Origin: Thermoanaerobaculia bacterium
GTDB lineage: Bacteria > Acidobacteriota > Thermoanaerobaculia > Multivoradales > JAHEKO01
Reading direction: 5' to 3'
Assembly: GCA_041574955.1 (NCBI GenBank)
Contig: JBFGNS010000004.1
Coordinates: 6,707 to 70,706, forward strand
DNA: 64,000 nucleotides
A program made the position numbers and the translations under genes. A model generated the notes under the pieces. It saw only the letters and a list, made by a program, of their open reading frames with translations, was not told where the DNA came from and ran no database searches. This document shows, piece by piece, positions 12,734-52,484 of this stretch (positions are counted from its first letter, which is position 1; each line of letters begins with the position of its first letter).

Positions 12734-14011
<1,278 letters not shown>

Positions 14012-14273: not shown

Positions 14274-15374
14274 ATGAAAATTCGTCTCAAGCGCTCCGAG
14301 TTCCTGAACGAGCTCGCCCCGATGCAAGGCATCGTCGAGCGACGCACCACCATTCCGGTGCTGTCGCACATCCTGCTGCGCGCCGGCGACGGCCGGCTGG
14401 ATCTGGCGGCGACCGATCTCGACGTGTCGCTCACCACCTGGTGCGAGGCCGAGGTCGAGGGCACTGGCGGCATCGCCGTCCAGGCGCGCAAGTTCCTCGA
14501 GATCGTCCGCTCGCTGCCGTCCGACGAGGTGCGGCTGGAGGTGGCGGACGAGAACCGGTTGCGCATCGCCGCCGGCAGCTCGCGCTTCACCATCAACGGT
14601 CTGTCGCCGGACGACTTTCCGACGCTGCCGACGGTGGACGAGAGCGAGGTCGTCGCGCTGCCGTTCGGCAGGTTCAAGGCGATGGTCGGCAAGGTGATCT
14701 TCGCGGTGTCGACCGAGGAGTCACGCTTCCAGCTCAACGGCGCGCTGGTCAAGCTGAAGGACGGCGGCCTCGAGCTGGTGGCCACCGACGGCCACCGCCT
14801 GGCGCTGGTCGAGAACGGTCTCGAGGGCGCCGCCGCCGCCGACGGCGTGCTGGTGCCGCGCAAGGCGCTGCTCGAGCTGCAGCGGTTCGAGGGGGGGGAC
14901 GGTGATCTGGGCTTCGCCAGGGGCGAGCACCACCTGTCGTTCCGGCTCGGGCGGCGGGAGCTGATCTGCCGCATCCTCGAGGGGACCTTCCCGGACTACG
15001 AGCGTGTGATCGCCAAGGACAACGACCGCGTCGGGGTGTTCGATCGGCGGCTGCTGTCGGAGGCGGTACAGCGCGTGGCGCTGCTCACCGGCGACCGGGC
15101 TCGAGCCGTTCGACTGGAGTTCTCCGACGACCGCATGAAGGTGTCGGCGGCCAACCCGGATCTCGGCGAGGCCAGCGAAGAGGTGGACTGCGAGTTCAGC
15201 GGTGACGGCCTCAGTCTCGGCCTGAACCCCGACTATCTGGCACAGTTCCTGGCCGCGGTCGACACCGCCAAGGTGCGGATCGAGCTCAAGGACGAGAACA
15301 CCCAGTGCATCGGCGTGCCGCTCGACGGCGAGGACCAGAGGTACCTCTGCGTCATCATGCCGATGCGCGTCTGA
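14274..15374 (+). CDS. dnaN: DNA polymerase III beta sliding clamp
   Basis: 366 aa. MKIRLKRSEFLNELAPMQGIVERRTTIPVLSHILL... with the three-domain clamp pattern and the canonical position after dnaA. Confidence 0.95.
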   Translation: MKIRLKRSEFLNELAPMQGIVERRTTIPVLSHILLRAGDGRLDLAATDLDVSLTTWCEAEVEGTGGIAVQARKFLEIVRSLPSDEVRLEVADENRLRIAAGSSRFTINGLSPDDFPTLPTVDESEVVALPFGRFKAMVGKVIFAVSTEESRFQLNGALVKLKDGGLELVATDGHRLALVENGLEGAAAADGVLVPRKALLELQRFEGGDGDLGFARGEHHLSFRLGRRELICRILEGTFPDYERVIAKDNDRVGVFDRRLLSEAVQRVALLTGDRARAVRLEFSDDRMKVSAANPDLGEASEEVDCEFSGDGLSLGLNPDYLAQFLAAVDTAKVRIELKDENTQCIGVPLDGEDQRYLCVIMPMRV

Positions 15375-15402: not shown

Positions 15403-19124
<3,722 letters not shown>

Positions 19125-19128
19125 TCCC

Positions 19129-21648
<2,520 letters not shown>

Positions 21649-29567: not shown

Positions 29568-30575
29568 TCAGAAACGCGACGCGGCGCGCTCCTTGGCGGG
29601 CAGGATCTCGAGGCAGGTCGTCCACCAGCCGGTCTCCACCGTCTCGACGAACTCCTCGGGCAGCCGCTCGAGCCGCATCTCCGCGGCCAGCGAGCGGTGG
29701 TCGTAGGCCAGCCGGCGCAGCTCGACGCGCAGCTCGCCGTCGCGCTCCTCGACCAGCGCGTAGCGCACCCGCGGGTCGCCGTCGTTCGCCGGCCGGCCGA
29801 TCACCCCGACGTTCACCGCGTCGCGTCCCGAGGGCAGCCGGCGGTGCCAGGGCAGCCCGGTGTGGGTGCACAGCAGGCCATCGCACCGCTCCTGGCGGCA
29901 CAGCACCTCGAGAAACGGCGCCGGCGAGGTGGAGGCGAAGAGGAACTCGTTGATGCGCCGCGGCGAGCCGTGGACCAGCAGCAGCTCTCGGCCGCCGACC
30001 CGCACGCGCCGGCGGCGCGGCCAGCGGCCCATCCAGCGGCGGAACTCCGGCGAGCAGCGCTCGGTGGTGTAGCGGTAGGAGATCTCGGCGAACCGGTTGT
30101 CGCGCGGGTCGGTGTAGCCGCAGTTGCAGTCCTCGCGGCCGGCGGCGAGCGACTCCTCGTAGTTGCCCATGACGCCGGCCACGCCGCCCTGCTCGAGCAG
30201 CGGCCAGGTCTTCTCGGGCGACGGGCCGAAGCCGCCCAGATCGCCCAGGCAGTAGACCGCGTCGACCCCGAGCGTGGCGGTCTCGTCGAGCAGCGCGGTG
30301 AGCGCGTAGTGGTTGTTGTAGACGCCGCCGAACACCGCGATGCGGGCGAACGGCCCCTCCACCGCGACGCCGTCGTCGACCGGCGCCAGGTAGCCGTCGG
30401 TCGCCGCCTGCCGCCCGGCGGCGTTCAGCCGGCGTCCGGCGTCGCGCGCGGCGCGGCGAAACTCGCCCAGCGGCACCAGGCGCTCGCCCCAGGTGGCCAT
30501 GCCGCGGTGGGCGGTGAGCTTGGCGGCGGCCTGGCGGCGCTGCTCGTCGGTGTCGGTGGGCGGTCGGTGCGACAT
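29568..30575 (-). CDS. Metallophosphoesterase-family protein
   Basis: 335 aa. IAVFGGVYNNHYAL, YCLGDLGGFG, MGNYE and LLLVHGSP are calcineurin-like phosphoesterase motifs. From memory, an uncharacterised metallophosphoesterase family is a recurrent neighbour of arsS/arsM. Confidence 0.75.
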   Translation of the reverse strand: MSHRPPTDTDEQRRQAAAKLTAHRGMATWGERLVPLGEFRRAARDAGRRLNAAGRQAATDGYLAPVDDGVAVEGPFARIAVFGGVYNNHYALTALLDETATLGVDAVYCLGDLGGFGPSPEKTWPLLEQGGVAGVMGNYEESLAAGREDCNCGYTDPRDNRFAEISYRYTTERCSPEFRRWMGRWPRRRRVRVGGRELLLVHGSPRRINEFLFASTSPAPFLEVLCRQERCDGLLCTHTGLPWHRRLPSGRDAVNVGVIGRPANDGDPRVRYALVEERDGELRVELRRLAYDHRSLAAEMRLERLPEEFVETVETGWWTTCLEILPAKERAASRF

Positions 30576-30596
30576 GGCGCTTACGGGTGGCGGGCG

Positions 30597-31484
30597 TCAG
30601 GTCCGGCAGCTCACGCCGTAGGCGTGGCAGGTCCAGCACGCCGGGTGATCGAGCGCGAACGGCTCCAGGGTGTCGGCCAGCGCGCTGCCCATCTTGGCGC
30701 TCGGCTCGTTGACCAGGATCGGGCAGACCCAGACCCCCTGGTCGGTGACCATGCGGCAGGAGGAGCACTGCAGGTGGTTCCAGCCGTCCTCGGGCGCGTC
30801 GCCGTCGCGCAGCCGCTGCCAGCTCTCGTAGGCGCCGCCGCGCTCGGCCTCGGCGCCGATGCGGAACACCGGCAGGATCTTGAGCCGCGGCTTGGCGATG
30901 CCGAGCCGGGTGAGCAGCGCGAAGAACCGCCGCTTGCCGTCGGCGCTGGCGTTGTCGTCGTGCACCTCGGTGACGGTGATCACCGGGTTGAGCCCCGCCG
31001 CCACCAGGTTGCGGATGCCGCCCAGGATGCGCTCGAAGGTCCCTTCGCCGCGGATCGGGTCGTTCGAGGCGGCGTCGTAGCCATCGAGCGACACGCGGAG
31101 GTCGAGCGAGTAGTCGCCGGCCGCGTCGAGCGCCGCCAGCCGCCGGCAGCGCGCCGGGTCGAGCAGCAGCCCGTTGGTCAGCACGCTGGCCGGCCCGTAG
31201 GCCAGCGTGGCCTCGAGGATCGCCTCCATCTCGGGGTTCAGGAACGGCTCGCCGCCGGTGAAGTAGTACTCCTTGACGCCCAGCCCGGCGGCCTCCTCGA
31301 GGTGGCGCGCGACGCTCTCGAGGTCCATGAACTCGTGGGTGTGGTTGGTCGGCGAGCAGGAGACGAAGCAGTGGGTGCAGGCCAGGTTGCACACCGTGCC
31401 GCCGACCTGGAACCACAGCGTGTCGAGCGAGCGCAGCTCGACCCGCGGCACGCGGTCCACAGAGCGCTCGTGGAGCCGGCTCAC
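30597..31484 (-). CDS. arsS: Radical SAM protein with Cys-rich C-terminal domain, ArsS-like (arsenosugar-type organoarsenical biosynthesis); start placed at GTG 31484
   Basis: LWFQVGGTVCNLACTHCF (CxxxCxxC cluster), GGEPFLNPE and a C-terminal Cys-rich tail (LQCSSCRMVTDQGVWVCP...HPACWTCHAYGVSC). It starts 10 nt after the arsM stop. Confidence 0.8.
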   Translation of the reverse strand: MSRLHERSVDRVPRVELRSLDTLWFQVGGTVCNLACTHCFVSCSPTNHTHEFMDLESVARHLEEAAGLGVKEYYFTGGEPFLNPEMEAILEATLAYGPASVLTNGLLLDPARCRRLAALDAAGDYSLDLRVSLDGYDAASNDPIRGEGTFERILGGIRNLVAAGLNPVITVTEVHDDNASADGKRRFFALLTRLGIAKPRLKILPVFRIGAEAERGGAYESWQRLRDGDAPEDGWNHLQCSSCRMVTDQGVWVCPILVNEPSAKMGSALADTLEPFALDHPACWTCHAYGVSCRT

Positions 31485-31494
31485 GGCACCGCTC

Positions 31495-32649
31495 TCAGCA
31501 GCAGGCGTCTGGGCCGCAACACGGAACCTCTTCGGTGGTGACGTCGTACTCCTCGCCCTTGGTCTCGCGCGGGTGGCGCAGCGGCGTGCGCGAGCAGTCG
31601 AACGGCGGTGCCTCGTCGAGCGGTACCTCGACCAGCGGGTCGACGAAGTCGAACTGGCCGGCGTACGGCTCCTGGCGGTAGAGCTGGTAGGTCTTGTCGC
31701 ATACCGCGTAGCGGCGGCCACGCTCCATGCGGTGGCCGTCGTCGTCCAGCACCTCCTTGAACGGCCCGCGGTAGACGACGGCCTGCTTGCGCTCGAGGCA
31801 CGGCCCCTCCTTGCCGGTGAACGCCTCGACGGTGAGCGAGCGGAACTCGATGCCCTCCACCGTGCGCCACGGCCCGACCTGGCGCTCGAGCACCCGGATG
31901 CCGTGGAAGCCGGCCCGCTCGAAAGCCTCCAGAAAGCCGTGCTCGGTGAACGCGCCCGAGATGCAGCCGCTCCACAGCTCGCGGTCCCGCTGCATGGCGA
32001 GCGGCACCGGCTCGTCGCTGACGATGTCGGAGATCACCGCCCGCCCGCCGCGTCGCAGCACGCGGTGGATCTCGTCGAACAGCTGCCGCTTCTGGCTGTT
32101 GTCGACCAGGTTGAGAACGCAGTTGGAGACCACCACGTCGACCGCCCCGTCGGCCACCAGCGGCCGGTCGCGGCGCAGCTCGTCGCTCAGCTCGTGCACC
32201 GCCATCAGCTCCTCGACGTTGCGCACCGGGCGCTCGGCCAGGCGCTGCTCGAGCAGGTCGAGGTCGAGCGTCAGGTCCTGGATGCGGCCGCGACGGAACT
32301 CGACGTTGGCGTAGCCCAGCCGCCCGGCCACCCGCGGCGCGTTGCGGCGCGCCACCTCCAGCATCTCGGGCGTCATGTCGACGCCGATCACCCGCCCCGT
32401 CTCGCCGACCACCTGGGCGGCGATGAAGCAGATCTTGCCGGTGCCGCTGCCCAGGTCGAGAACCGTCTCGCCGGGCCGCAGGTGGCGGCTGGGATCGCCG
32501 CAGCCGTAGTCGCGCTCCAGCACCTCATCGGGGATCACCGCCAGGTAGCGCGGATCGTAGTCGGTCGGGCAACACAGGTCGGCGGCGCGCGCCTGCGCGC
32601 CTTCGGTGTAGCGGCTCTTGACGGCTTTCTCGACATCGGCAACGGACAT
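31495..32649 (-). CDS. arsM: Arsenite S-adenosylmethionine methyltransferase ArsM
   Basis: 384 aa. SAM motif VLDLGSGTG plus the ArsM cysteines in the expected contexts ([37 protein letters not shown]). Cys-rich C-terminus [14 protein letters not shown] lies 7 nt upstream of the ATG. Confidence 0.85.
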
Positions 32650-32746
32650 GGGGAGGCTCCTCGTCGTCTCTGCTGGGTGCCCGGACGCGGGTGACGGCTG
32701 GCGTCACCCGGGCCCGGCGGCGGCGCGGTGGTGGCGGCGGCGAGGC

Positions 32747-33496
32747 TCAGCCGGGCGGCGAGCGGCCGCGGGCGGCTCGCGCCGCGGCCGGCCGCAGGCG
32801 GCCGACGACCGGCGGCAGGGGCGGCCGGCACAGCCGCCGCAGCAGCCGGCGCAGGGCGTCCAGCCACGACAGCGGCAGCCGCCGCAGGCCGGCCAGCCAG
32901 CGGCCGAGGTCGGCCGCCCGGTCGAGATCGGCCAGCGGCTCGAGCAGCGTCACTTCGACGCCACCGGAGTGCGCCGCCGCCAGCAGGCTGGCGAGGGTGT
33001 CGGAGCGCCGCCAGGCCACCGCGGCCAGCAGATCGTCTACCGGCCGGTCGGCGGCCAGCAGGTAGAAGCCGCCGTCGGGCGAAGGGCCGACCACCAGCCG
33101 CCCCGGCGTGCGCGACAGCTCGGCCAGCGCGGCGGCCACCTGCCGGCGGCCCAGGCCCGGCGCGTCGGAGCCGACCACCACCAGCGGGCTCGTCGCCGAG
33201 GGTCGCTCGCCGGCCATCGCCCGTCGCAGCCGCTCGCCGAAGCCGCCGCCGGCCTGCGGCCGGTGCTCGACGTCCCCGGCCGGCGCCAGCCGGCGCGGCG
33301 AGCAGACCCGCAGCCGGCAGCCGTTGGCCCGGCCGGCGGCGAGCGCGGCCGCCAGGCAGTCGCGGTGGAGCGCCAGCTCCCACGCGGCCAGCCGGCTGGG
33401 CAGCAGGCGGCGCCGCGCGCGCTCGCGCCGCGGGCCGAGCGTGAACACGAGGAGTGTCGGGCGGCTGGCGGACGCCGAGCTGGTGGGGTCGGGCAT
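32747..33496 (-). CDS. DUF2064-family protein (glycosyltransferase-like fold, TIGR04282 type); start re-set to ATG 33496
   Basis: 249 aa. TLLVFTLGP..., VVVGSDAPGLGRRQVAAALAEL and LVVGPSPDGGFYLLAA match the DUF2064 pattern as I remember it. Confidence 0.7.
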   Translation of the reverse strand: MPDPTSSASASRPTLLVFTLGPRRERARRRLLPSRLAAWELALHRDCLAAALAAGRANGCRLRVCSPRRLAPAGDVEHRPQAGGGFGERLRRAMAGERPSATSPLVVVGSDAPGLGRRQVAAALAELSRTPGRLVVGPSPDGGFYLLAADRPVDDLLAAVAWRRSDTLASLLAAAHSGGVEVTLLEPLADLDRAADLGRWLAGLRRLPLSWLDALRRLLRRLCRPPLPPVVGRLRPAAARAARGRSPPG

Positions 33497-33631
33497 GCTC
33501 TCGTTGGCGGTATACGCCGCCCGGTGCAGAATCGGTTTCCCGAGCCGGGAGGCGGCCAGTCTACATGCCGGGCCGACGTATACTCGCGGGACCTTGCATC
33601 TCGCGCCACAGCCAGCGTCGGCGGGGCGCCG

Positions 33632-34681
33632 GTGAGGATCGCCTCCGTCGGCAAGGCGTTTCCTCGCCACTACTACGAGCAGGAGACGCTGCTGGCCGCC
33701 TTTCGCCGCCTGTGGGCGGATCGGTTCTTCAACCCCGAGAGGCTGGAGAGCCTCCACCGCAACGTACTGGTGGGTGGCCGCCACCTGGCCCTGCCGCTCG
33801 AGCGCTACGAGCAGCTGGCCGGCTGGGGCGAGGCCAACGACGCCTGGATCGAAGTGGCGCAGGAGGTCGGCGCGGCGGCGGTGAGCGATGCCCTGGAGCG
33901 CGCCGGGCTGGCGGTGGACCAGGTCGACGCCCTGCTGGCGGTGACCGTGACCGGCGTCGCCACGCCGTCGCTCGACGCGCTGCTGATCAACCGCCTCGGC
34001 CTGCCGTCGCGCACCCGACGCTACCCGATCTTCGGTCTCGGCTGTGTCGCCGGCGCCGCCGGCGTGGCGCGCGCCGCGGACTACGTCAAGGCGTACCCCG
34101 GACAGGTGGCGGTGCTGGTGTCGGTCGAGCTGTGCTCGCTGACCTTGCAGCGCGAGGACCTGTCGATCCCCAATCTGATCTCCTCGGGGCTGTTCGGCGA
34201 CGGCGCGGCCGCGGTCGTGGTGGTGGGTGACGAGCGCCGCGCCGCCGGGCCGCGGGTCGTAGCCAGCCGCTCGGTCTTCTACCCCGGAACCGAGGAGGTG
34301 ATGGGATGGCGCATCACCGAGCGCGGCTTCCAGGTGGTGCTGTCGGCCGAGGTGCCGGAGATGGTGCGGCGGCACCTGCGCGCCGATGTCGACCGCTTCC
34401 TGGCCGACCACGGCCTCGACCGGCGGCAGATCGCGAGCTGGGTCGCCCACCCCGGTGGGCCGCGGGTGCTGGAGGCGATGGCCGAGAGCCTGGAGCTGCC
34501 CGAAGAGGCGCTGGCGGTCACCTGGCGCAGCCTGCAGGAGGTGGGCAACCTGTCGTCCACCTCGGTGCTGCTGGTGCTCGACGAGACGCTGCGCGAGCAC
34601 CGGCCGCCGCCCGGCAGCCCGGGGATGATGCTGGCGATGGGGCCGGGCTTCTGCTCGGAGCTGGTGCTGCTCGAGTGGTAG
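33632..34681 (+). CDS. Type III polyketide synthase (chalcone/stilbene synthase family); start placed at GTG 33632
   Basis: 349 aa. Catalytic Cys (PIFGLGCVAGAAG), His (VAHPGGPRVL) and Asn (VGNLSSTSVL), with a GPGF C-terminal motif. Confidence 0.9.
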   Translation: MRIASVGKAFPRHYYEQETLLAAFRRLWADRFFNPERLESLHRNVLVGGRHLALPLERYEQLAGWGEANDAWIEVAQEVGAAAVSDALERAGLAVDQVDALLAVTVTGVATPSLDALLINRLGLPSRTRRYPIFGLGCVAGAAGVARAADYVKAYPGQVAVLVSVELCSLTLQREDLSIPNLISSGLFGDGAAAVVVVGDERRAAGPRVVASRSVFYPGTEEVMGWRITERGFQVVLSAEVPEMVRRHLRADVDRFLADHGLDRRQIASWVAHPGGPRVLEAMAESLELPEEALAVTWRSLQEVGNLSSTSVLLVLDETLREHRPPPGSPGMMLAMGPGFCSELVLLEW

Positions 34682-34715
34682 CGCCGCCGCCCCGCCCCGC
34701 CGCCCGGGAAGCGCC

Positions 34716-35237
34716 GTGGTGAGCCGCGTTCTCTACCTGGGGCTCGTCGGGCTGGTGGCGGTCCAGCGGCTGGCCGAGCTGCGGCTGGCCGGCCACAACA
34801 CCCGACGCCTGCTGGCAGCCGGTGCGGTAGAGCACGGTCGCGGCCACTACCCGGTGATGGTGGCGCTCCACACGCTCTTCCTCGTTGCCTGCCCGGCGGA
34901 GGTCTGGTTGCTCGAGCGACCGCTGGTGCCGCCCCTCGCCGGCGCCATGCTGCTCGCCCTGGCGGGCTCGACGGCGCTGCGCTACTGGGCGATCGCCAGC
35001 CTCGGCGAGCGCTGGACGACGCGAGTGCTGGTGCCGCCGGCGGCGCCGCGGTTGCGTCGCGGACCGTACCGCTACCTGCGTCACCCCAACTACCTGGCGG
35101 TGGTGGTCGAGATGGCCGCCCTGCCGCTGGTGCACACCGCCTGGCTCACCGCGCTCGTCTTCAGCCTCGCCAACGCGGCTCTGCTCGTGGTGCGCATCGG
35201 CTGCGAGGAGACCGCGCTGTCGCGGCCGGCCGGGTAG
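34716..35237 (+). CDS. Isoprenylcysteine carboxyl methyltransferase (ICMT)-family membrane methyltransferase
   Basis: 173 aa, multi-TM, with RGPYRYLRHPNYLAVVVEMAALPL. This is the same family as the methyltransferase partner of bacterial type III PKSs (B. subtilis BpsB/YpbQ type). Confidence 0.75.
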   Translation: MVSRVLYLGLVGLVAVQRLAELRLAGHNTRRLLAAGAVEHGRGHYPVMVALHTLFLVACPAEVWLLERPLVPPLAGAMLLALAGSTALRYWAIASLGERWTTRVLVPPAAPRLRRGPYRYLRHPNYLAVVVEMAALPLVHTAWLTALVFSLANAALLVVRIGCEETALSRPAG

Positions 35238-35250
35238 ACTGCGCCGGGGC

Positions 35251-35490
35251 ATGACCAGAGAGGAGATTCTCGCCGGCGTCGCTGAGCTCGCCCGCCGGGA
35301 GCTGGGCTGGAGCGGTCCGCTCGAGCCCGAGATGCGGCTGCTCGAGGAGCTGTCGCTCGACTCGCTGCGCCGGCTGACCCTGGCGGTGGCGGTGGAGAAC
35401 CGGTTCCGCATCCGGCTGTCGCCTGAAGACGAGGCCGCGCTCGAGACGGTGGCGGATCTGGTGGCGGTGATCGACCGGCGACGGCGGTGA
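35251..35490 (+). CDS. Acyl carrier protein
   Basis: 79 aa. MTREEILAGVAELARRELG...LEELSLDSLRRLTLAVAVE with the phosphopantetheine Ser in the LDSL motif. Found inside a longer spurious track ORF. Confidence 0.8.
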   Translation: MTREEILAGVAELARRELGWSGPLEPEMRLLEELSLDSLRRLTLAVAVENRFRIRLSPEDEAALETVADLVAVIDRRRR

Positions 35491-36866
35491 GCGGGGCGGC
35501 GTCAGGTCGGGGCTGGACGGTGCGGCTCGGGTCGCTGGTGGAGCCCGCCCCGCGGTCGCTCGACGAGCCCTCCTTCGTCCGCACGGTGGTGTGGGTGAGC
35601 CTGTGGACGGCGCTGGTGGGAGGGGCCCTGCTGGCCGGCAACGGCCTGGCGGAGGGCCGGCGGAACATCGCCGTCACCGCCGGCGCGTTCACCGCGATCG
35701 CGGCCGGCCTGCTGTGGCTCGGCCGCATCGGCCGGCTGCGGCTGGCCGGCGGCCTGCTCCCGTTGGTCTCGCTCGTCCTGCTGACGCTGGCGCTCGACCG
35801 CAACCTGGGCATTCACGACAGCGGCGTCCTGTGCTTGCCGGTGATCGTCATCTTCGCCGGCCTGACGCTCGGACGCCTCGGCGCGGTGGCGTTCGCGGCG
35901 CTGGCCAGCGGCGCCGCCTTCTGGCTGGTGCGGCCGGAGGGCCGGCGGCCGACGCCGGCGATGCTGGCGGCCGAGACCGGCGTCGGCGATGCGGTGGCGG
36001 TGACGATCCTGCTGGCCGTGACCACCGCCCTGCTGTGGGTGATCATCGCCGGCCTGCGCGGCAGCCTGCGACGGGCGCAGGCGAGCGCCCGAGCGCTAGC
36101 CGCGGACATCGAGGAGCGCCGCCGCGTCGAGGGTCAGCGCGAGGCGCTGATTGCCGAGCTCGAGTCCAAGAACGCCGAGCTCGAGCGGTTCAACTACACC
36201 GTGTCGCACGACCTGCGCAGCCCGCTGGTAACCATCTCGGCGTTCATCGACCTGGCGGAGCAGGACGCCCGACAGGGCAGCGAGGAGCGGCTGCACTCCG
36301 ACCTGTCGGTGGTGCGGCGCGCCGCGGCCACGATGCGGTTGCTGCTCGAGGACCTGCTCGAGCTGTCGCGCCTCGGCCGAACCCAGCTCAGGCTGCGCGA
36401 GGTGGAGGTGCGCCAGGTGGTCGAGGAGGCGTTGTCGGTGCTGGCCGGCCCGATCGCCGAGGGCCGGGTGGAGGTGACGATCCAGCAGGGGCTGCCCACC
36501 GTGCTGGCCGACCGGGCACGGCTGCTGCTGCTGCTGCAGAACCTGCTCGAGAACGCGATCAAGTTCCGTGACGCGCGGCAGCCGGAGGTCGAGGTCGGCT
36601 GCCAGCGGCGCTCCGGGCGGGAGGTACTGTACGTGCAGGACAACGGAGTCGGCATCGCGCCCGCCCTGCACGAGAAGGTGTTCGAGGTGTTCTCGCGGCT
36701 GGACTCCAGGATCGAGGGCACCGGGCTCGGGCTGGCGCTGGCGCGGCGGGTGGTGGAGCTTCACGGCGGCGAGATCTGGGTCGAGTCGGAGGGCGCCGGG
36801 CGCGGCGCCAGGTTCTGCTTCACGCTGGCGGCGGCCGCCCCGGAGCCGGTGGGGGCAGGGCGGTGA
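35487..36866 (+). CDS. Membrane sensor histidine kinase (no adjacent response regulator)
   Basis: 459 aa. About six N-terminal TM helices, a coiled coil, the HisKA H-box FNYTVSHDLRSPL, and HATPase N/G boxes (LLENAIKF, DNGVGI, GTGLGLA). Its GTG overlaps the ACP stop (GTGA). Confidence 0.85.
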   Translation: MSGAASGRGWTVRLGSLVEPAPRSLDEPSFVRTVVWVSLWTALVGGALLAGNGLAEGRRNIAVTAGAFTAIAAGLLWLGRIGRLRLAGGLLPLVSLVLLTLALDRNLGIHDSGVLCLPVIVIFAGLTLGRLGAVAFAALASGAAFWLVRPEGRRPTPAMLAAETGVGDAVAVTILLAVTTALLWVIIAGLRGSLRRAQASARALAADIEERRRVEGQREALIAELESKNAELERFNYTVSHDLRSPLVTISAFIDLAEQDARQGSEERLHSDLSVVRRAAATMRLLLEDLLELSRLGRTQLRLREVEVRQVVEEALSVLAGPIAEGRVEVTIQQGLPTVLADRARLLLLLQNLLENAIKFRDARQPEVEVGCQRRSGREVLYVQDNGVGIAPALHEKVFEVFSRLDSRIEGTGLGLALARRVVELHGGEIWVESEGAGRGARFCFTLAAAAPEPVGAGR

Positions 36867-38605
36867 CCGCCCGCACCCTCGGCGAGCTGCTTCTCGCCGC
36901 GGACGGCGTCACCGACAGCGGCTTGCGGCTGCTCGACGGCCGCGGACGGGCGACCCGGGTGAGCTGGGCGGAGCTCGTCCGGAGCGCGGGCCGGACGGCC
37001 GGGCGGCTGGCAGCGGCAGGGGTGGAGCCGGGCGACCGGGTGGCGCTGGTCTACCCCACCGGGCGCGGCTTCTTCGACGCCTTCTTCGGCTGCGTGATGG
37101 CCGGTGCCGTGCCGGTCCCGCTGTACCCGCCGGTGCGTCTCGGCAGGCTCGACGAGTACCACCGCCGTACCGCCGGCATGCTCGACGCGGTGGCCGTCCG
37201 GATGGTGCTGGCCGACCGGCGGATCCGCCGGCTGCTGGGCGAGACCGTTGCCCCGGCCGCTCCGCCGCTCGGCTGCCGGCAGCTGGCGGAGCTGCCCCGC
37301 GCCGAGCCGCTGGCGGTGGCGAGCGAGCCCGAGGCGCTGGCGCTGGTGCAGTTCTCCTCCGGCACCACTCTAGCGCCCAAGCCGGTGATGCTCAGCCATC
37401 GGGCGCTGCTCGCCCAGACCCGCCTGCTGAACGGCTTCTGGCCCGACCAGGGCGAGCTGCGCCACAGCGGAGTGTCGTGGCTGCCGCTCTACCACGACAT
37501 GGGGCTGATCGGCTGTGTGCTGCCGGCGCTCGAGCGCCGCACAGACCTGACGCTGATCGGCCCCGAGCGGTTTGTCGCCGAGCCGGCGGTGTGGCTGCGG
37601 GCCATCTCCCGCTACCGGGCGACGGTGTCGCCGGCGCCCAACTTCGCCTACGGGCTGTGCGTCGAGAAGATCCGCGACGAGCAGCTCGCAGGCGTCGACC
37701 TGAGCAGCTGGCGGGTCGCGCTCAACGGCGCCGAGGCGGTGTCGCCCGAGGTGCTGCGCCAGTTCGCCGAGCGGTTCGCGCCATGGGGTTTCCGGCGCCA
37801 GGCGTTGACTCCCGTCTACGGGCTGTCCGAAGCCGCCCTGGCGGTGACCTTCTCGGCGCTCGACGGGCCGTTCGTCGGCCGCCGGTTCGACCGCCAGGCG
37901 CTGTACGGCCGCGGCGAGGCGGTGGCCCGCGACGACGGCGTCGAGCTGGTCTCGGTCGGCCGGCCGCTGCCGGGCTTCGAGCTCTCGCTGCGAGCGCCTG
38001 ACGGCCAGCCGGTTGCCGACGGCCGCACCGGCCGGCTCTGGGTGCGCGGTCCGTCGCTGATGGCGGGCTACTTCGGCCGGCCCGACGACACCGCCGAGGT
38101 GCTCGTCGACGGCTGGCTGGACACCGGTGACCAGGGCTTTGTCGACGGCGGCGAGCTGTTTCTCACCGGCCGCGTCAAAGACCTGATCATCGTACGTGGG
38201 CGAAACCACGCGCCGGAGGAGATCGAGTACGCGGTCTACGGCCTGCCGGGGGTGCGCACCGGCTGCACGGCGGCGGTGGCCTACCTGCCAGAGGGCGGCG
38301 AGCGCGAGGAGCTGCTGCTGCTGGTCGAGCTGCGGCCGGCGGCAGACGGTGACCTGCGGCGCGAGCTGCCCGAGCTGTGCCGCCAGCGGGTGCTGGCCGC
38401 CGCCGGACTGGCGCTCGACCGCGTGGTGCTGCTCGAGCCCGGCACCCTGCCGCGCACCTCGTCGGGCAAGATCCGCCGCCAGGACGCGCTGCGCCGCTAC
38501 CGCGACGGCCGGCTGGCGCCGCCCGCGGCGGTCAACGTGGTGACCCTGGCGCGCGCCATGGTGCGTTCGCGGCGCGCCTTCGGCCGCACGAGGAGCAACG
38601 ACTGA
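36863..38605 (+). CDS. Fatty acyl-AMP ligase / AMP-dependent synthetase
   Basis: 580 aa. Adenylation motifs LVQFSSGTTLAPKPVMLSH, YGLSEA, DTGDQG and a late GKIRR-type motif (SSGKIRR). The start overlaps the kinase stop (GTGA). Confidence 0.8.
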   Translation: MTARTLGELLLAADGVTDSGLRLLDGRGRATRVSWAELVRSAGRTAGRLAAAGVEPGDRVALVYPTGRGFFDAFFGCVMAGAVPVPLYPPVRLGRLDEYHRRTAGMLDAVAVRMVLADRRIRRLLGETVAPAAPPLGCRQLAELPRAEPLAVASEPEALALVQFSSGTTLAPKPVMLSHRALLAQTRLLNGFWPDQGELRHSGVSWLPLYHDMGLIGCVLPALERRTDLTLIGPERFVAEPAVWLRAISRYRATVSPAPNFAYGLCVEKIRDEQLAGVDLSSWRVALNGAEAVSPEVLRQFAERFAPWGFRRQALTPVYGLSEAALAVTFSALDGPFVGRRFDRQALYGRGEAVARDDGVELVSVGRPLPGFELSLRAPDGQPVADGRTGRLWVRGPSLMAGYFGRPDDTAEVLVDGWLDTGDQGFVDGGELFLTGRVKDLIIVRGRNHAPEEIEYAVYGLPGVRTGCTAAVAYLPEGGEREELLLLVELRPAADGDLRRELPELCRQRVLAAAGLALDRVVLLEPGTLPRTSSGKIRRQDALRRYRDGRLAPPAAVNVVTLARAMVRSRRAFGRTRSND

Positions 38606-38606
38606 G

Positions 38607-39713
38607 ATGGCCCGGCCGGACCTGCTGGTGGTCGGTGGCGGCCCGGCCGGGCTGGCGACGGCGATCGCGGCCCGCTGCGCCGGGCTGAGCGCGACCGTGG
38701 TCGACCGCTCGCGGCCGCCGATCGACAAGGCGTGCGGCGAGGGAATCATGCCGGCCGGCGTCGGGCGGCTGGCCGAGCTCGGCGTGGAGCTCGACCCCGT
38801 CGCATGCCGGCCGTTCCGCGGCATCCGCTACCGCGATGGAGAGCTGTCGGCCGCCGCCGACTTTCCGGGCCGGCCGGGGCTGGGAGTCCGCCGCACCACC
38901 CTCCACCAGGCGCTGGCCAAGCGGGCGGCGGCGGCGGGTGTCGAGCTGGTGTGGGGGCGGGTTGTGCGGGCGCTCGAGGGCGGCACGGCCGTCACCGACG
39001 ACGGGCCGCTCGGGGGCCGCTGGATCGTCGGCGCCGACGGGCTGACCTCGCGAGTGCGGCGGTGGGCGGGGCTCGAGCGGCCGCTGCCGCGGCGGTTCCG
39101 CTTCGGCGTCAGGCGGCACTACCAGGTCGCGCCGTGGAGCCACCGGGTGGAGGTCTGGTGGGCGGACGGCTGCGAGGCGTACGTCACGCCGGTGTCGGCC
39201 GGTGAGGTCGGCGTGGCCCTGCTGTGGAGCGGCGGCAAGGCCGACTTCGACCGCCTGCTGGGCCGTTTCCCGGGCCTCGCCGAGCGGCTGGCGGGGGCGG
39301 CCAGCAGCTCGCGCGACCAGGGCGCCGGCCCGCTCCACCGCGAGCCGCGGGCGGTGTGGCGCGGCCGGGTGCTGCTGGCCGGCGACGCCGCCGGCTACTA
39401 CGACGCCATCACCGGCGAGGGGCTGGACCTCGCCTTCCACCAGGCGTTCGCCCTGGTCGACGCCGTGCGCCATGACGACCCGCGCCGCTACGCGCTCTTC
39501 TGCCGGCGAATGTACCGGCTGCCGTTCGCGCTCATCCGGCTGCTGCTCGTCGCCGAGCACCGGCCGTGGCTGCGCCGCCGGCTGATCCGCACGCTGGCCG
39601 AGGACCCGCGCCTGTTCGCCCGGCTGCTGGCCATCCACGCCCGTGAGCGGCCGCCGCGCAGCCTCGGACTGGCCGGCGTCTGGCGGCTGGCGCGCGGCCT
39701 GGCGCGGGCCTAG
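38607..39713 (+). CDS. FAD-dependent monooxygenase/oxidoreductase (geranylgeranyl reductase/aromatic hydroxylase family)
   Basis: 368 aa. DLLVVGGGPAGLATAIAAR (FAD fold), DKACGEG and LLAGDAAGYYDAITGEG. Starts 1 nt after the ligase stop. Confidence 0.8.
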   Translation: MARPDLLVVGGGPAGLATAIAARCAGLSATVVDRSRPPIDKACGEGIMPAGVGRLAELGVELDPVACRPFRGIRYRDGELSAAADFPGRPGLGVRRTTLHQALAKRAAAAGVELVWGRVVRALEGGTAVTDDGPLGGRWIVGADGLTSRVRRWAGLERPLPRRFRFGVRRHYQVAPWSHRVEVWWADGCEAYVTPVSAGEVGVALLWSGGKADFDRLLGRFPGLAERLAGAASSSRDQGAGPLHREPRAVWRGRVLLAGDAAGYYDAITGEGLDLAFHQAFALVDAVRHDDPRRYALFCRRMYRLPFALIRLLLVAEHRPWLRRRLIRTLAEDPRLFARLLAIHARERPPRSLGLAGVWRLARGLARA

Positions 39714-41422: not shown

Positions 41423-42019
41423 GTGCGTCCAGAAGCCAGCGCCCGCGCCGCAGACGACGCGGCCGACCGCCACCTGCTCGAGCGGGTGGCGCGCCGCGAC
41501 CGTGCCGCCTTCGAGCGGCTGTACGAGCGCTATGCCGACCGCGTGGCGCGCTACCTGTTGCGCCTGGTGGGCCGCCGGGAGGTGGTGGAGGAGGCGCTCA
41601 ACGACGTGATGCTGGCGGTCTGGCGTGGCGCCGGGAGCTTCGCCGGGCACTCCCGGGTCTCCACCTGGATCCTGGGGATCGCCTACCGCAAGGGGGTCGA
41701 CGCGCTGCGCCGGCTGGTTAGGCAGCCGATCGCGGTGCCGGCGGAGAGCGCCGAGAACGGCGAGCCGCCGGGCGACGAGCTGACCGCGGAGCAGCTCCGG
41801 ATGTCGCTCGAGCGGGCGCTCGAGACGCTCTCGGCCGAGCAGCGGGCGGTGGTCGAGCTGACCTACTACTTCGGCTACTCGTACCGCGAGATCGCCGCCA
41901 TCACCGGCTGCCCGGTCAACACGGTCAAGACCCGCATGTTCTACGCCCGCAAGCGGCTGCAGGCGGCGTGGTCCGGCCGCGACAGCGCTGGGAGCGCCGC
42001 CGGGGAGGAACGCAGCTAG
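41423..42019 (+). CDS. ECF-type RNA polymerase sigma-70 family factor
   Basis: 198 aa. Region 2 (FERLYERYADRVARYLLRLVGRREVVEEALNDVMLAVW) and region 4 (LSAEQRAVVELTYYFGYSYREIAAITGCPVNTVKTRMFYARKRL). Confidence 0.85.
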   Translation: MRPEASARAADDAADRHLLERVARRDRAAFERLYERYADRVARYLLRLVGRREVVEEALNDVMLAVWRGAGSFAGHSRVSTWILGIAYRKGVDALRRLVRQPIAVPAESAENGEPPGDELTAEQLRMSLERALETLSAEQRAVVELTYYFGYSYREIAAITGCPVNTVKTRMFYARKRLQAAWSGRDSAGSAAGEERS

Positions 42020-42682
42020 ATGCACGACCCGACTCGCGACCAGGCCCTGAGTCATGCCGAGACCGCCGAGCTGCTGCCGTGGCTGGTCAACGGTAGCCTG
42101 GCGGACGACGATCTGCACCGCGTCGAGGCGCATCTCGAGCGGTGCGCCGACTGCCGGCGGGAGGCCGCGCGGCTCGAGCGGATGGCGCGCGCGCTCGCCG
42201 GGCGGGCGGAGCCGGTCGCCCCGCCCCGTCCCGACTTTGCCGCCGTGATGGCGCATATCGAGGCGGCGGAGTCGCCGGGCGACGGGGCCTCCGGGCGGCG
42301 CGCACGGCCGGCCTCCGGGCGCAGCTTCGCCTGGCTGCTGGCTGCCCAGGCGGCAGCCGTGGCGTTGCTGTCGGTGGTGCTGCTGTGGGCGTCGGCGCCC
42401 GGCGACGTCGGCGCCGGGTTCCGCACCCTGGCGCGACCGGCGGCGGCGCCGGCGCTCGCCTCGGCGCCGCGACTGCGCGTCGTCTTCGAGGAGCAGCTGA
42501 CCGAGGTCGAGCTGCGCGACCTCCTGCTGTCGGTGCGCGGCCGGGTGGTGGCCGGACCGACGCCGTTCGGCGTCTACACCGTGGAGCTGGCGTCGATCGA
42601 CAGCGGTGAGCTGGCCGGCGTGGTCGACAGGCTGCGGCGCAGCGGCAAGGTCCGGTTCGTCGAAACGGTGGTGGGCCAGTAG
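42020..42682 (+). CDS. Anti-sigma factor (zf-HC2 type) with one TM segment
   Basis: 220 aa. HLERCADCRREAARL matches the H-x3-C-x2-C motif. TM segment FAWLLAAQAAAVALLSVVLLW. Starts at the base after the sigma stop. Confidence 0.7.
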   Translation: MHDPTRDQALSHAETAELLPWLVNGSLADDDLHRVEAHLERCADCRREAARLERMARALAGRAEPVAPPRPDFAAVMAHIEAAESPGDGASGRRARPASGRSFAWLLAAQAAAVALLSVVLLWASAPGDVGAGFRTLARPAAAPALASAPRLRVVFEEQLTEVELRDLLLSVRGRVVAGPTPFGVYTVELASIDSGELAGVVDRLRRSGKVRFVETVVGQ

Positions 42683-43911
42683 TGCGAGCGCTCCGCCCGA
42701 GCGGCGCCCGCGCCGGGGCTGCGCTGCTGCTGGCGGTGGGCCTGGCGGCCGGCTCGCCGAGCGCCGCCGCGCACCGGGGACGCGACGCGCAAACCGCCGA
42801 AGAGCAGCGGCAAGAGCAGGTGATGGCCGTGCTCAAGCCGTCGCCGCCGACGCTGTGGAACCGGGACGCCCGCGCTCTGGCCCAGGCCTACGAGGCCGAG
42901 CTGGTGGTGGCCTGGACGCTGCGCTCGCTCGACGCGCCCTGCATAATCCTCGAGCCGCGGTCGGGGCGGTCGCTCGAGGCGGTCGTCGCGTCGCTCTCCG
43001 CCGACCACCGCGTGCAGTGGGCGCAGCCGGTGCAGTACTTCAGCCTGCTGACCGAGTACAACGACCCCCACTACCATCTGCAGCACGGAGCGCACGCCCT
43101 CGACCTCGGTCAGGCCCATGCCCATGCCACCGGCCGCGACGTCACGGTGGCCATCGTCGATACCGGGGTCGACGTCGCCCATCCGGATCTGCGCGACCGG
43201 GTGGCGGGCGCGCAGAGCCTGCTCGAGCGCGACCGCGGCGGCTTCACCGGCGACGTCCACGGCACCGCCGTGGCCGGCGTCATCGCGGCGCAGGCCAACA
43301 ACGAGGTCGGGATCGTCGGCGTGGCGCCGGACGCCAGGCTGCTGGCGCTCACGGCGTGCTGGCCGGTCGGTGACGCCGGCGGCGCGGCGTGCAACAGCTA
43401 CACCCTGGCGGGGGCGCTCGACGCCGCGATCCACCGCCGCGCCGAGGTGATCAACCTGAGCCTCACCGGGCCACGGGACCGGCTGGTCGAGACGCTGATT
43501 CTCGAGGCGGTCGCGCGGGGGACCACGGTGGTCGCCGCGGCCGACGAGGGCAGCGCCGACGGCGGCTTTCCGGCTTCCCTGCCGGCGGTGCTGGGCGTCG
43601 GTGCCGCCGGCGCCGGCGAGGCCGAGCCGGTGGCCGCGGCCGGCCGGGTGCTGGCTCCCGGCGAGGACATCCTGACCACCGTGCCGCGCGGCGCCTACGA
43701 CTTCCTGTCGGGCAGCTCGCTGGCCGCCGCGCACGCCTCCGGGGTCGTCGCGCTGCTGGTCCAGTGCCGCCCGGGCACGGCCCCGGCGGAGCTGCTGCGG
43801 ATCGTCGTCGAGACCGCCCGCCGAGACCCGGCCGCCGCGCGGCCCGGTACGATCGATGCCGCCGCGGCGCTGGGTCGGCTGACGGTCTCGGGACCGTGCG
43901 CCAGCCGTTAG
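42682..43911 (+). CDS. Secreted S8-family (subtilisin-like) serine peptidase
   Basis: 409 aa. Signal peptide, and catalytic triad contexts VAIVDTGVDVAHPDL (Asp), HGTAVAGVIAA (His) and SGSSLAAAHASGVVALL (Ser). The start overlaps the anti-sigma stop. Confidence 0.9.
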   Translation: MRALRPSGARAGAALLLAVGLAAGSPSAAAHRGRDAQTAEEQRQEQVMAVLKPSPPTLWNRDARALAQAYEAELVVAWTLRSLDAPCIILEPRSGRSLEAVVASLSADHRVQWAQPVQYFSLLTEYNDPHYHLQHGAHALDLGQAHAHATGRDVTVAIVDTGVDVAHPDLRDRVAGAQSLLERDRGGFTGDVHGTAVAGVIAAQANNEVGIVGVAPDARLLALTACWPVGDAGGAACNSYTLAGALDAAIHRRAEVINLSLTGPRDRLVETLILEAVARGTTVVAAADEGSADGGFPASLPAVLGVGAAGAGEAEPVAAAGRVLAPGEDILTTVPRGAYDFLSGSSLAAAHASGVVALLVQCRPGTAPAELLRIVVETARRDPAAARPGTIDAAAALGRLTVSGPCASR

Positions 43912-47682: not shown

Positions 47683-47856
47683 GCCCAACGCGCTGGCCGG
47701 GGGCTCGGGGGGCTGCTGCTCGTCCTCGACGGGAGACAGGGCCGGGTACCGGAGGGTGCAGGGCGGTCGGGGCACTCGCGCCGAAAGCCCTTTGGCTACG
47801 GGGGACTGTGGCGCTGGCACGGATCCTGAAGCCCGGGGCCGGCGAGGAGGCCCGAG

Positions 47857-48570
47857 ATGATGCGACGGAATATGACTTTGGCACTGGCCGGCGGCGCGCT
47901 GGCGCTGGGGCTCATGGTGGCCGCGCCGGCCGAGGCGGGGCACGCCGGCTGGTCGTTCGGCGCCGGCTTCCGGGTCGGCGGCTTTGATTTCCAGATCGGC
48001 TTCCGCGACGGCGGGCGGTACGGTCCGGGCCCCTACTTCCACACCCGCGGCGCCCTGAGCTACCCTGGCCACCGCTGCGGCAGCTACTGCCTGCGCAGCG
48101 GCCGCGACTTCTACCACCACTACACCTGCCCGCTGGTCGGCCTCCACTTCAGCCGCTTCGGATACTCGTCGGGCTACTACCTCGATGCGTACCCGCCGCC
48201 GGGTTTCTTCTTCCGCGGTTACTACGGCGGCTACCACGACCGCCACTACCGGCACCGTGCGCCCAGCCGCCGGCACGGCTACTATCTCCACCGGGACCGC
48301 CACCGCGACCGCTGGTGGGACCACCGCGGCGACCGCTGGGACCGTCGTGACCAGCGGCGCGACCGCCGCCGCGACTGGCGGCGGGACCGGCGGCACGACC
48401 GGCGCGACGAACGGCGTGACTGGCGGCGCGACCGGCGGGATGACCGCCGCGACTGGCGCGAGGACCGGCGTCACGATCGGCGCCGTCACCGCCTGCGCGA
48501 TCGCGACGACCGCCGCCGCGACGACGACCGGCCGCGGGCCCGCCGCCGCGGCCGCCGGGGTCCCGGCTAG
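47857..48570 (+). CDS. Secreted hypothetical protein with Arg/Asp/Trp/His-rich repeat tail
   Basis: 237 aa. GAGGAGG lies 6 nt upstream of the ATG. Clear signal peptide MMRRNMTLALAGGALALGLMVAAPAEA. A Gly/Tyr/Phe-rich middle region with three Cys, then about 90 aa of DRRxDWRRDRR-type repeats. Confidence 0.6.
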   Translation: MMRRNMTLALAGGALALGLMVAAPAEAGHAGWSFGAGFRVGGFDFQIGFRDGGRYGPGPYFHTRGALSYPGHRCGSYCLRSGRDFYHHYTCPLVGLHFSRFGYSSGYYLDAYPPPGFFFRGYYGGYHDRHYRHRAPSRRHGYYLHRDRHRDRWWDHRGDRWDRRDQRRDRRRDWRRDRRHDRRDERRDWRRDRRDDRRDWREDRRHDRRRHRLRDRDDRRRDDDRPRARRRGRRGPG

Positions 48571-50318: not shown

Positions 50319-52151
50319 TCAGGCGATGGCGGCGGCGGCCGGGGCGCGAACGAGCTCGGCGACGCGCGCCGCCGGCAGCGGCCGGTGGAACAGGAAGCCC
50401 TGCAGCTCGTCGCACCCCTGGGAGCGCAGGAAGCCCGCCTGCGCCTCGGTCTCGACGCCCTCGGCGACCACCACCAGGTTCAGCTTGCGCGCCATCGCGA
50501 TGATGGCGGCGGCGATGGCGTCGTCGTCCTCGTCGCGCGTCAGGCCGACCACGAACGAGCGGTCGATCTTGATGACGTCGAACGGGAAGCGGCGCAGGTA
50601 GGTGAGCGAGGTCTGGCCGGTACCGAAGTCGTCGATCGCCAGCTGCACGCCGCCGTCTCGCAGCTCTTCGAGCTGGCCGAGCAGCCGGGGGTCGTCGCGC
50701 AGCACGGCACGCTCGCTCAGCTCGAGCTTGAGCAGCCCGGGCTCGGTGCCGTGCTCGGCGAGGACAGCGAGCACGCCGCGCGCGAAGTCCGGCTGCTCGA
50801 GCTGGCTCGAAGCGACGTTGACCGACACCGGCACCAGCTCGATGCCCTGCTCCCGCCAGCGGCCGAGCTGGCGGCAGGCCTCGCGCAGCACCCAGTCGCC
50901 GATCGGCACCATCAGACCGGTGTCCTCGGCGATCGGCACGAACTCGTCCGGCGCAAGCAGCCCGCGCTCGGGATGCTGCCAGCGCACCAGCGCCTCGAGG
51001 CCGGTGATCCCGCCGCCGGCGTCGACCAGCGGCTGGTAGTGGAGTACGAGCTGGTCCTCCTCGAGCGCTCGCCGCAGCCCGAGCTTGATCTCCAGCTTGT
51101 GGACCGCGGCGCTCTTCATCGAGCTGTCGAAGAACAGGCAGGTTCCCGGCCCCTTGGACTTGGCGTGGTACATGGCGGTCTCGGCGCGCTGCAGCAGGGC
51201 GTCCTCACCGCTGCCGTCCTCGGGCGCCAGCACGACGCCGATGCAGGAGGTCAGGTGGAGCTTCTTCTGCTGGATGGCGAACGGGCCGGCCATCGCTTCG
51301 ATCAGCCGGCGCCCCACCCGCTCGACGGCCGCGCGGTCGTTCACCTCGTTCATCAGGATGACGAACTCGTCGCCGCTCAGCCGCGCCACCGAGGTGGTGC
51401 CGTCGTCGCCGCCGCGCTCGCGGGCCAGCGTGTCGCCCGAGCGCAGGCTGCGCCGCAGACGTTTGCCGATCTGGCGCAGCAGCTCGTCGCCGCGCTGGCG
51501 GCCGAGTGTCTCGTTGATCTCCTTGAATCCGTCGATGTCGAGAAACAGCACCGCGATCTGCTTGCCGTCGCGCTCGGCGCGCGCCAGCGCCAGCCCCAGG
51601 AAGTCGGTGAACAGGGTGCGGTTCGGCAGCCCGGTCAGGTCGTCGTAGTGCTTCAGCCGCAGCATGGCGTCGCTGGCGGCGAGGGCGTTGCGCTTGGCCT
51701 CTTCGAGCGAGAAGCGGTCCTCGCGCAGCCGGTTGAGCAGCCGCCAGGTGCTGAGGCAGCGCGCCAGCCGCTGGGTCAGCAGCGTCCAGGAGATCGGTGG
51801 CGGTACGACGTCGGTGGCGCCGGCCTCGAAGGCGTCTTCCACTGCTCGCTGTCCGCCCTCGGAGAGCAGCACGAAGATCGGCAGCTCGGCGCCGTCGGCG
51901 GTGCGGCGCACCTCGCGGCACAGCGAAAGGCCGTTGCCCCCGGCCGCGTCGTCGAGCAGGATGGCGTCCGGCATCTCAGAGCGCAGCAGGGCGAGCAGCT
52001 CGCGCAGCGAGCCGGCGGGGGTGGTGCGGAAGCCGGCGCCGCGCAGCGCGGCGTGGGCCAGGGGCCGCAGCTCGCCGCCGAGCGCGTGCAGCACCAGGTG
52101 CTGCCGGTTGCCGGAAGCGCCGCGGGCCGGGAAGAAGCCGCCGGGGCTCAC
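50319..52151 (-). CDS. Receiver-like domain / GGDEF / EAL signalling protein (start placed at GTG 52151)
   Basis: About 610 aa. REC-like N-terminus (PDAILLDDAAGGNGLSLCREV), a GGDEF domain with the variant motif RLSGDEFVILM, and an EAL domain with EALVRWQHP, DDFGTG and KIDRSF. Confidence 0.85.
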   Translation of the reverse strand: MSPGGFFPARGASGNRQHLVLHALGGELRPLAHAALRGAGFRTTPAGSLRELLALLRSEMPDAILLDDAAGGNGLSLCREVRRTADGAELPIFVLLSEGGQRAVEDAFEAGATDVVPPPISWTLLTQRLARCLSTWRLLNRLREDRFSLEEAKRNALAASDAMLRLKHYDDLTGLPNRTLFTDFLGLALARAERDGKQIAVLFLDIDGFKEINETLGRQRGDELLRQIGKRLRRSLRSGDTLARERGGDDGTTSVARLSGDEFVILMNEVNDRAAVERVGRRLIEAMAGPFAIQQKKLHLTSCIGVVLAPEDGSGEDALLQRAETAMYHAKSKGPGTCLFFDSSMKSAAVHKLEIKLGLRRALEEDQLVLHYQPLVDAGGGITGLEALVRWQHPERGLLAPDEFVPIAEDTGLMVPIGDWVLREACRQLGRWREQGIELVPVSVNVASSQLEQPDFARGVLAVLAEHGTEPGLLKLELSERAVLRDDPRLLGQLEELRDGGVQLAIDDFGTGQTSLTYLRRFPFDVIKIDRSFVVGLTRDEDDDAIAAAIIAMARKLNLVVVAEGVETEAQAGFLRSQGCDELQGFLFHRPLPAARVAELVRAPAAAAIA

Positions 52152-52484
52152 TCCTGCTCCACCCAGCTGTTGACCGCCACCGTGCTCGCCGCCGCGTCGG
52201 CCCACGCCAGGCCGTCTGACCACGGGAAGCCATCGGACCGGCAGACAGCCACAGCGCAGAGCGCCGTCGTGTACCTTCGCTGCGAGCTCCAGCCGCCCAT
52301 AACCCAACCTCCGACCGCTGGAGCAGCAAGGGAAGTACCAGAGACCGACGTCGATGGATCGCGAGCGGCCCGGCACCGCAAGAGGTCAACCGGGGCAACA
52401 CTTTCCGGTGACAGCGCGCGGACGAGCCGGGGGGCTCGAGACGGCGGACCGGTAGCGCGGGCCGAAAGAAACGGCGGTGATCGT

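Follow-up and report, generated by a model that had tools for sequence, protein, structure and literature searches.

Within a 64,000-nt stretch of contig JBFGNS010000004.1 from a Thermoanaerobaculia bacterium (hereafter the window; 73% GC), six co-directional genes on the + strand span positions 33632-39713. They encode a type III polyketide synthase (PKS), an ICMT-family methyltransferase, an acyl carrier protein (ACP), a sensor histidine kinase (HK), a fatty acyl-AMP ligase (FAAL) and a flavin adenine dinucleotide (FAD)-dependent oxidoreductase. We examined this operon with respect to the lipid it is likely to make and to the kinase gene embedded in it. The features of the locus are as follows.

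33497..33631, no strand: divergent intergenic region upstream of the operon, 135 bp between a DUF2064/TIGR04282-like gene and the PKS gene; presumed operon promoter region
33632..34681, + strand: type III PKS, 349 aa, of the clade of PKS10/11, SrsA, PkqA and FtpA
34716..35237, + strand: ICMT-family integral membrane methyltransferase, 173 aa, of the SrsB/BpsB/FtpB type
35251..35490, + strand: free-standing ACP, 79 aa, Pfam PP-binding
35487..36866, + strand: orphan sensor HK, 459 aa, HisKA and HATPase_c
36863..38605, + strand: FAAL, 580 aa, with a FAAL-type insertion
38607..39713, + strand: FAD-dependent oxidoreductase, 368 aa, a putative hydroxylase of the SrsC/PkqC/FtpE type

Gaps of 34 nt (PKS-ICMT) and 13 nt (ICMT-ACP) separate the first three genes. 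GTGA start/stop overlaps join ACP to HK (35487-35490) and HK to FAAL (36863-36866), and a single base, position 38606, lies between the FAAL stop codon and the ATG of the FAD gene. For all six open reading frames (ORFs), the G+C content at third codon positions (GC3) was of coding type (0.87-0.94), and a filter on this measure gave one + strand coding frame per gene across 33.6-39.7 kb. The window PKS is identical to a protein encoded on contigs of two Thermoanaerobaculia-type metagenome-assembled genome (MAG) assemblies, GCA_041608635.1 and GCA_041609615.1. The contig of GCA_041608635.1 is identical, and its independent gene calls give the same six genes. The overlaps at 35487 and 36863 and the 1-nt gap at 38606 proposed in the initial annotation of this DNA are confirmed. 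Gene calls for the contig of GCA_041609615.1 give the first four genes complete and a partial FAAL gene at the contig end. The nearest GTDB species representatives are Thermoanaerobaculia/Acidobacteriota MAGs.

A sigma-70 consensus scan of the divergent region (33497..33631) found no site, such a scan being uninformative for the host organism, and the operon promoter is therefore placed by position only. Inside the operon, consensus scanning gave one promoter-like and one terminator-like match, both at or near the level of shuffled sequence.

Biosynthetic enzymes and the predicted product

The PKS matched Pfam Chal_sti_synt_N/C with 65 and 72 bits (cutoff 27). Its best match among solved structures was Mycobacterium tuberculosis PKS11 (4JAO; 345 bits), end-to-end over residues 3-349. 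The catalytic residues Cys138, His273 and Asn306, within GLGCVAG, AHPGG and VGNLSS, aligned with the triad motifs of PKS11, with Cys138 falling on the PKS11 residue that is changed to Ser in entry 4JAT. No triad substitution was found, consistent with the earlier description of a type III PKS with an intact Cys-His-Asn triad. A Trp at position 226 is part of an MGW motif that also occurs in PKS11 and in the Streptomyces Srs-type PKS compared below. At 73-81% identity to the window protein there are more than 120 database clusters, many of which carry the JGI name alkylresorcinol/alkylpyrone synthase.

The ICMT, ACP, FAAL and FAD enzyme assignments were likewise supported by domain and family matches. 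The ICMT-family protein scored 95 bits against Pfam ICMT (cutoff 24). The ACP, with its phosphopantetheine-attachment residue Ser38 in LDSL, matched NCBIfam ACP models with scores under their cutoffs. For the product of 36863-38605, a Pfam AMP-binding match was accompanied by top NCBIfam matches that were all FAAL models (for example PRK09192, 436 bits, cutoff of 600 not reached). Compared with solved structures, this protein scored 320 bits against the Escherichia coli FAAL 3PBK and at most 126 bits against acyl-CoA ligases, and the 47 residues between YGLSE319 and GRPLPG366, corresponding to the FAAL-type insertion, aligned throughout to 3PBK. Judged by its sequence, with the insertion present and a closer match to FAALs than to acyl-CoA ligases, the protein is a predicted FAAL. 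The FAD protein has GxGxxG, GADG and GDAAG motifs and a Pfam FAD_binding_3 match of 59.5 bits, above cutoff. Its matches in the PDB were weak (at most 38 bits), with monooxygenases mixed with a reductase, and overall it resembles both group A flavoproteins and geranylgeranyl reductases only distantly.

The distribution of the operon type was examined by mapping the six window proteins by tblastn onto the best 80 loci from GTDB species genomes, in which the PKS is 57-78% identical to that of the window. The complete set PKS-ICMT-ACP-FAAL-FAD was present, in that order, at 27 of the 80 loci, and several more were cut by contig ends. These loci belong to Thermoanaerobaculia, other Acidobacteriota, Holophagae, Myxococcota, Rokubacteria and Bdellovibrionales-labelled MAGs, mostly to Acidobacteriota and Myxococcota. 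The loci in Myxococcota MAGs, with a PKS 62-66% identical to the window PKS, have this same order. A two-gene PKS-FAD form, in which ICMT, ACP and FAAL were not detected, was found at 31 loci (Acidobacteriaceae and Sulfotelmatobacter), and the FAD flavoprotein is therefore the most constant partner of the PKS clade across the 80 loci. A few loci have a PKS-ICMT-FAD form without ACP and FAAL, among them the two closest relatives by PKS identity, L007 (5549-8249; 78%) and L008 (10001-12683; 76%), both from Thermoanaerobaculia. Genes have therefore been gained and lost between ICMT and FAD within Thermoanaerobaculia.

The gene combination had been considered uncommon outside cyanobacteria and actinobacteria. 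This view was refuted by the ftp arrangement of Myxococcus xanthus, by the 27 related genomes above and by an acidobacterium described in 2016 (PMC5006271). Ftp-type alkylresorcinol/quinone operons are common in Thermoanaerobaculia and other Acidobacteriota, and the operon is of a widespread, ordinary bacterial type whose biosynthetic part is nothing new in kind.

By analogy with characterized systems, a four-step pathway can be proposed. The FAAL would adenylate a free long-chain fatty acid and load it on the free-standing ACP, and the type III PKS would then combine the acyl-ACP starter with three malonyl-CoA units, which would be cyclized to an alkylresorcinol or alkylresorcylic acid. The ICMT-family membrane methyltransferase would O-methylate the ring, and the FAD enzyme would hydroxylate it to give a methoxy-alkyl-hydroquinone or benzoquinone staying in the membrane. 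The four steps are drawn from homology to those systems, and stand beside the gene content, order, coupling, motifs, homology and five-gene conservation observed here. The initial annotation had proposed a fatty-acyl-primed phenolic lipid, made via FAAL and ACP and both O-methylated and hydroxylated, and this chemistry is plausible. With a probability that we put at about three in four, the operon is of the Ftp/Srs/Pkq type and directs the synthesis of a phenolic lipid or benzoquinone derived from a long-chain alkylresorcinol.

Several observations weigh against this assignment. The PDB entry of PKS11, the solved homologue nearest to the window PKS, names it an alpha-pyrone synthesis PKS, and the ring type is therefore not settled by homology. 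A Trp/Gly cyclization switch, relevant to ArsB and ArsC, is mentioned in PMC9927152. For the FAD protein, the best NCBIfam match was to the geranylgeranyl-reductase family (104 bits, below the 158.8 cutoff), so that the label of hydroxylase derives from operon orthology and not from the sequence of the protein itself. More generally, the matches of the window operon proteins to specific equivalog models in NCBIfam were all under cutoff, and mass spectrometry for alkylresorcylic acid in the acidobacterium of PMC5006271 found none. Given the name of PKS11, the window PKS could instead be an alkylpyrone synthase like PKS11 or ArsC, in which case the product would be a methylated or oxidized alkylpyrone and not a resorcinol-derived quinone. 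The JGI name of the PKS homologues does not choose between the two. However, the PKS/ICMT/FAD trio leads to alkylresorcinol methyl ethers and alkylquinones in Streptomyces and to polyketide quinones in mycobacteria (PMC9927152, PMC10896814), and the three window proteins are 47-55% identical to such an operon. We consider an alkylpyrone product improbable and favor the alkylresorcinol-derived lipid or quinone.

The embedded histidine kinase

The gene between ACP and FAAL had been described only as a kinase. In its product, some 200 hydrophobic residues precede the Pfam matches, HisKA with 42 bits and HATPase_c with 91.5 bits. His241, Asn352/Asn356, Asp385-x-Gly387-x-Gly389 and Gly411-x-Gly413-x-Gly415, which make up the H, N, G1 and G2 boxes, were invariant in a 30-member family alignment. 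The kinase is specifically an intact two-component sensor histidine kinase, and this one unusual element of the operon had been passed over. Its GC3 of 0.93 is host-like.

In an AlphaFold2 model of residues 1-243 (mean predicted local distance difference test, pLDDT, 77.5), the N-terminus forms six transmembrane helices followed by one long signaling helix. No PAS or HAMP domain was found in HK, the N-terminal region of which lies outside Pfam coverage, and the modeled membrane domain had no counterpart in the PDB at E below 1. This sensor domain, which forms the N-terminus of kinases that vary widely in length, was detected in 127 representative protein clusters and has a conserved loop motif G-I/V-H-D together with a conserved Pro (Gly108, His110, Asp111 and Pro118 in the window protein). 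Quinone-responsive kinases of the RegB/PrrB type are ~460 aa long and have six transmembrane helices leading directly to HisKA and HATPase_c, with no periplasmic domain. The overall architecture of the window HK is similar, as an analogy only, and the GGxxNPF loop motif of the RegB type is not present in the window protein as read. No receiver domain, and thus no response regulator, was found near HK in the operon or its flanking genes. Among the window ORFs scanned, the only receiver domain belongs to a response-regulator-GGDEF-EAL protein at 50319-52385 (- strand), ~13 kb from HK.

In none of the 80 related loci was HK found at the equivalent operon position, and at one of them, L011, ACP runs directly into FAAL through an ATGA overlap of stop and start. 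Both HK junctions of the window (35483-35490 and 36859-36866) end in the 8-mer GGCGGTGA, which carries the stop/start overlap; at 73% GC this sharing is not significant. No mobile-element signature was evident at these junctions, where the only repeats were short and at chance level.

Full-length homologues of HK, 40-47% identical, are orphan kinases in unrelated contexts, with neighbors that include a GHMP kinase and a nucleoside hydrolase, a TPR protein and a gamma-glutamyltranspeptidase, and Na+/H+ exchangers. On one contig, L096 (1-4882), a 45% identical relative with a similarly lengthened signaling helix has a 4-nt overlap with a UbiD C-terminal domain gene, which is followed by genes for NDH-2 and then a VKOR-thioredoxin protein, all of them quinone-linked. 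This is a single case, and a general tie of the HK family to quinone metabolism was rejected because the other contexts are unrelated. A metagenome scan with an alignment of the HK membrane domain returned mostly kinase-core matches; the matches listed included ~20 membrane-domain loci, none of which adjoined PKS, ACP or FAAL.

The closest full-length HK homologue (P0123, 45-47% identical) is encoded on a Logan contig of 1.4 kb, L094 (SRR29257371). At positions 1-92 of this contig, an ORF ending in LAPEDEAGIETVGDLVVAI overlaps the HK start by stop/start and is evidently the C-terminus of an ACP similar to that of the window, LSPEDEAALETVADLVAVI; at 1438-1442, the HK stop overlaps a further ATG at the contig end. 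In a neighbor-joining tree, the window and L094 kinases were sisters in 72 of 100 bootstraps. Because L094 repeats the ACP-HK coupling with a sister HK, one old insertion kept in at least two diverged lineages is suggested, on the thin evidence of one short contig and moderate bootstrap support, and the ACP-HK linkage may be old. The HK gene is a lineage-specific addition that is probably transcribed and translated together with the pathway genes.

One explanation for its presence, which we hold tentatively and rate a little short of even odds, is the neutral insertion of an orphan HK, functionally unconnected with the lipid pathway, into the ICMT-FAD interval, a region prone to rearrangement. 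This would fit the variability of the interval in the close relatives L007 and L008, which lost ACP and FAAL, as well as the occurrence of family members embedded with 4-nt overlaps in unrelated operons and the lack of a partner regulator nearby. It fits less well with an HK that is intact, retains all catalytic boxes and has host-like GC3, or with the recurrence of the ACP-HK linkage in a divergent lineage. That recurrence, an ACP C-terminus directly before HK with an overlapping stop/start on L094, instead speaks for an HK tied to the pathway, which would detect the phenolic lipid or quinone, or a lipid-induced change in membrane or redox state, by way of its six-helix membrane domain, and signal to a distant response regulator for feedback or a downstream response. 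Such a tie would also be consistent with the translational coupling on both sides of HK, with the sister pairing in 72 of 100 bootstraps, which suggests one old retained insertion, with the purely membrane-embedded sensor part and with the L096 relative that overlaps a UbiD-family gene near the quinone users NDH-2 and VKOR. However, all 80 related operons do without HK, other family members lie in unrelated contexts and no response regulator is adjacent. In addition, the second instance comes from a contig of 1.4 kb on which neither PKS nor FAAL is visible, the 72% bootstrap value of the distance tree is only moderate support and no known quinone-binding motif was seen. We regard a functional tie as rather doubtful.

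The most that can be stated is that production of HK coincides with that of the lipid, and that HK resides in the membrane, in which the lipid should remain; a role for HK in sensing membrane lipids or quinones is speculation. More specifically, it is unlikely that HK serves specifically to sense the membrane product of its own operon, whether alkylresorcinol or polyketide quinone, or the redox state of that product. If it did, HK would be the first case of a two-component sensor coupled translationally within a type III PKS operon, and the membrane sensor domain of the 127 clusters would be a lipid or quinone sensor. A response of HK to the product would open a way to study the monitoring of phenolic lipids or non-isoprenoid quinones in bacterial membranes, and would give the unannotated six-helix domain a function. 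For the Acidobacteriota hosts, abundant organisms of which most are uncultured, polyketide quinones could be alternative electron carriers or modifiers of the membrane, roles that have been proposed in mycobacteria and Streptomyces. At this locus, which we consider a variant worth a note, the only lead is the embedded sensor kinase.

Genes surrounding the operon

On the other side of the presumed promoter region lies a second, divergent gene cluster.

29568-33496, - strand: divergent four-gene cluster encoding a metallophosphoesterase, a radical SAM protein, an ArsM-like methyltransferase and a DUF2064 protein

The ArsM-like methyltransferase has a Cys-rich C-terminus and scored 327 bits against NF040538 arsinothricin ArsM (cutoff of 500 not reached). 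The DUF2064 protein (32747-33496, - strand) resembles TIGR04282 'arsenosugar biosynthesis glycosyltransferase' with 96 bits (cutoff of 134 not reached). The cluster thus resembles arsenic-methylation or arsenosugar genes and may, from these matches, specify an organoarsenic pathway. Of these genes, those for the metallophosphoesterase and the ArsM-like protein were located upstream of the PKS in most Thermoanaerobaculia relatives but not in other phyla, and the DUF2064 gene was seen in L003 and L007. The synteny of this cluster with the PKS may be only vertical.

Just downstream of the operon, after a convergent gene for a 342-aa protein without a Pfam match and a gene for a small cupredoxin-like protein, an extracytoplasmic function (ECF) sigma factor, a zf-HC2 anti-sigma factor and a subtilase (S8) are encoded in a row at 41423-43911. 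Further on, the ORF at 47830-48570 has a signal-like N-terminus and a long repetitive tail rich in Arg, Asp, His and Trp (…RDRRRDWRRDRRHDRRDERRDWRRDRRDDRRDW…), with no Pfam match. The replication-origin neighborhood occupies 552-21648 and includes yidC (- strand), dnaX, dnaA (12659-14011), dnaN (14247-15374), an ORF at 16167-19124 that is probably gyrB, and gyrA (19102-21648). The cumulative GC skew climbs from about 12 kb, and the operon lies about 20 kb from dnaA-dnaN-gyrB-gyrA.

Comparison with known systems

M. tuberculosis PKS11 (4JAO) is the closest solved structure to the window PKS, with which it has roughly 55% identity and the catalytic triad in common. It differs in that its PDB entry names it as an alpha-pyrone synthesis PKS, and it presumably lies in a gene cluster different from operons of the window type.

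The core of a type III PKS, a membrane methyltransferase and a flavin oxidoreductase is common to the window operon, Streptomyces griseus SrsABC, Mycobacterium smegmatis PkqABC and cyanobacterial HidABC, but these three systems are without a dedicated FAAL and ACP and without a kinase. The close Thermoanaerobaculia relatives L007 and L008 carry just this SrsABC-like three-gene form. Such PKS/methyltransferase/oxidoreductase trios give rise to polyketide quinones in M. smegmatis and Streptomyces (PMC9927152), and the products of both Srs and Ftp are oxidized to alkylquinones (PMC10896814). The analogy to Srs drawn in the initial annotation is supported by the 55%, 55% and 47% identity of the window PKS, ICMT and FAD proteins to the products of consecutive genes on a plasmid of Streptomyces sp. 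NBC_00184 (a PKS, an ICMT-family protein and an 'FAD-dependent monooxygenase'). Cyanobacterial HidABC is a three-gene cluster of PKS, methyltransferase and oxidoreductase without FAAL or ACP, and its PKS is reported to take a C14 acyl-ACP thioester as starter (PMC8086630).

By gene content and order, the window operon is most readily likened to M. xanthus ftp. The ftp operon is associated with alkylresorcylic acid and alkylquinone (Hayashi et al. 2011, as cited in PMC5707447, PMC10896814 and PMC5006271), and FtpA accepts acyl-ACP made by the FAAL FtpD (PMC5707447). An acidobacterial cluster with the M. xanthus ORF organization was compared with ftp for the PKS, methyltransferase, AMP-dependent synthetase and monooxygenase genes, with identities of 47-58% (PMC5006271). 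The five protein types (type III PKS, methyltransferase, ACP, FAAL and monooxygenase) are the same in ftp and in the window, where the five-gene Ftp-type set is present, co-directional and in order, and the starter route from FAAL to ACP to PKS would be shared. The window departs from this type in its extra gene, the HK placed between ACP and FAAL.

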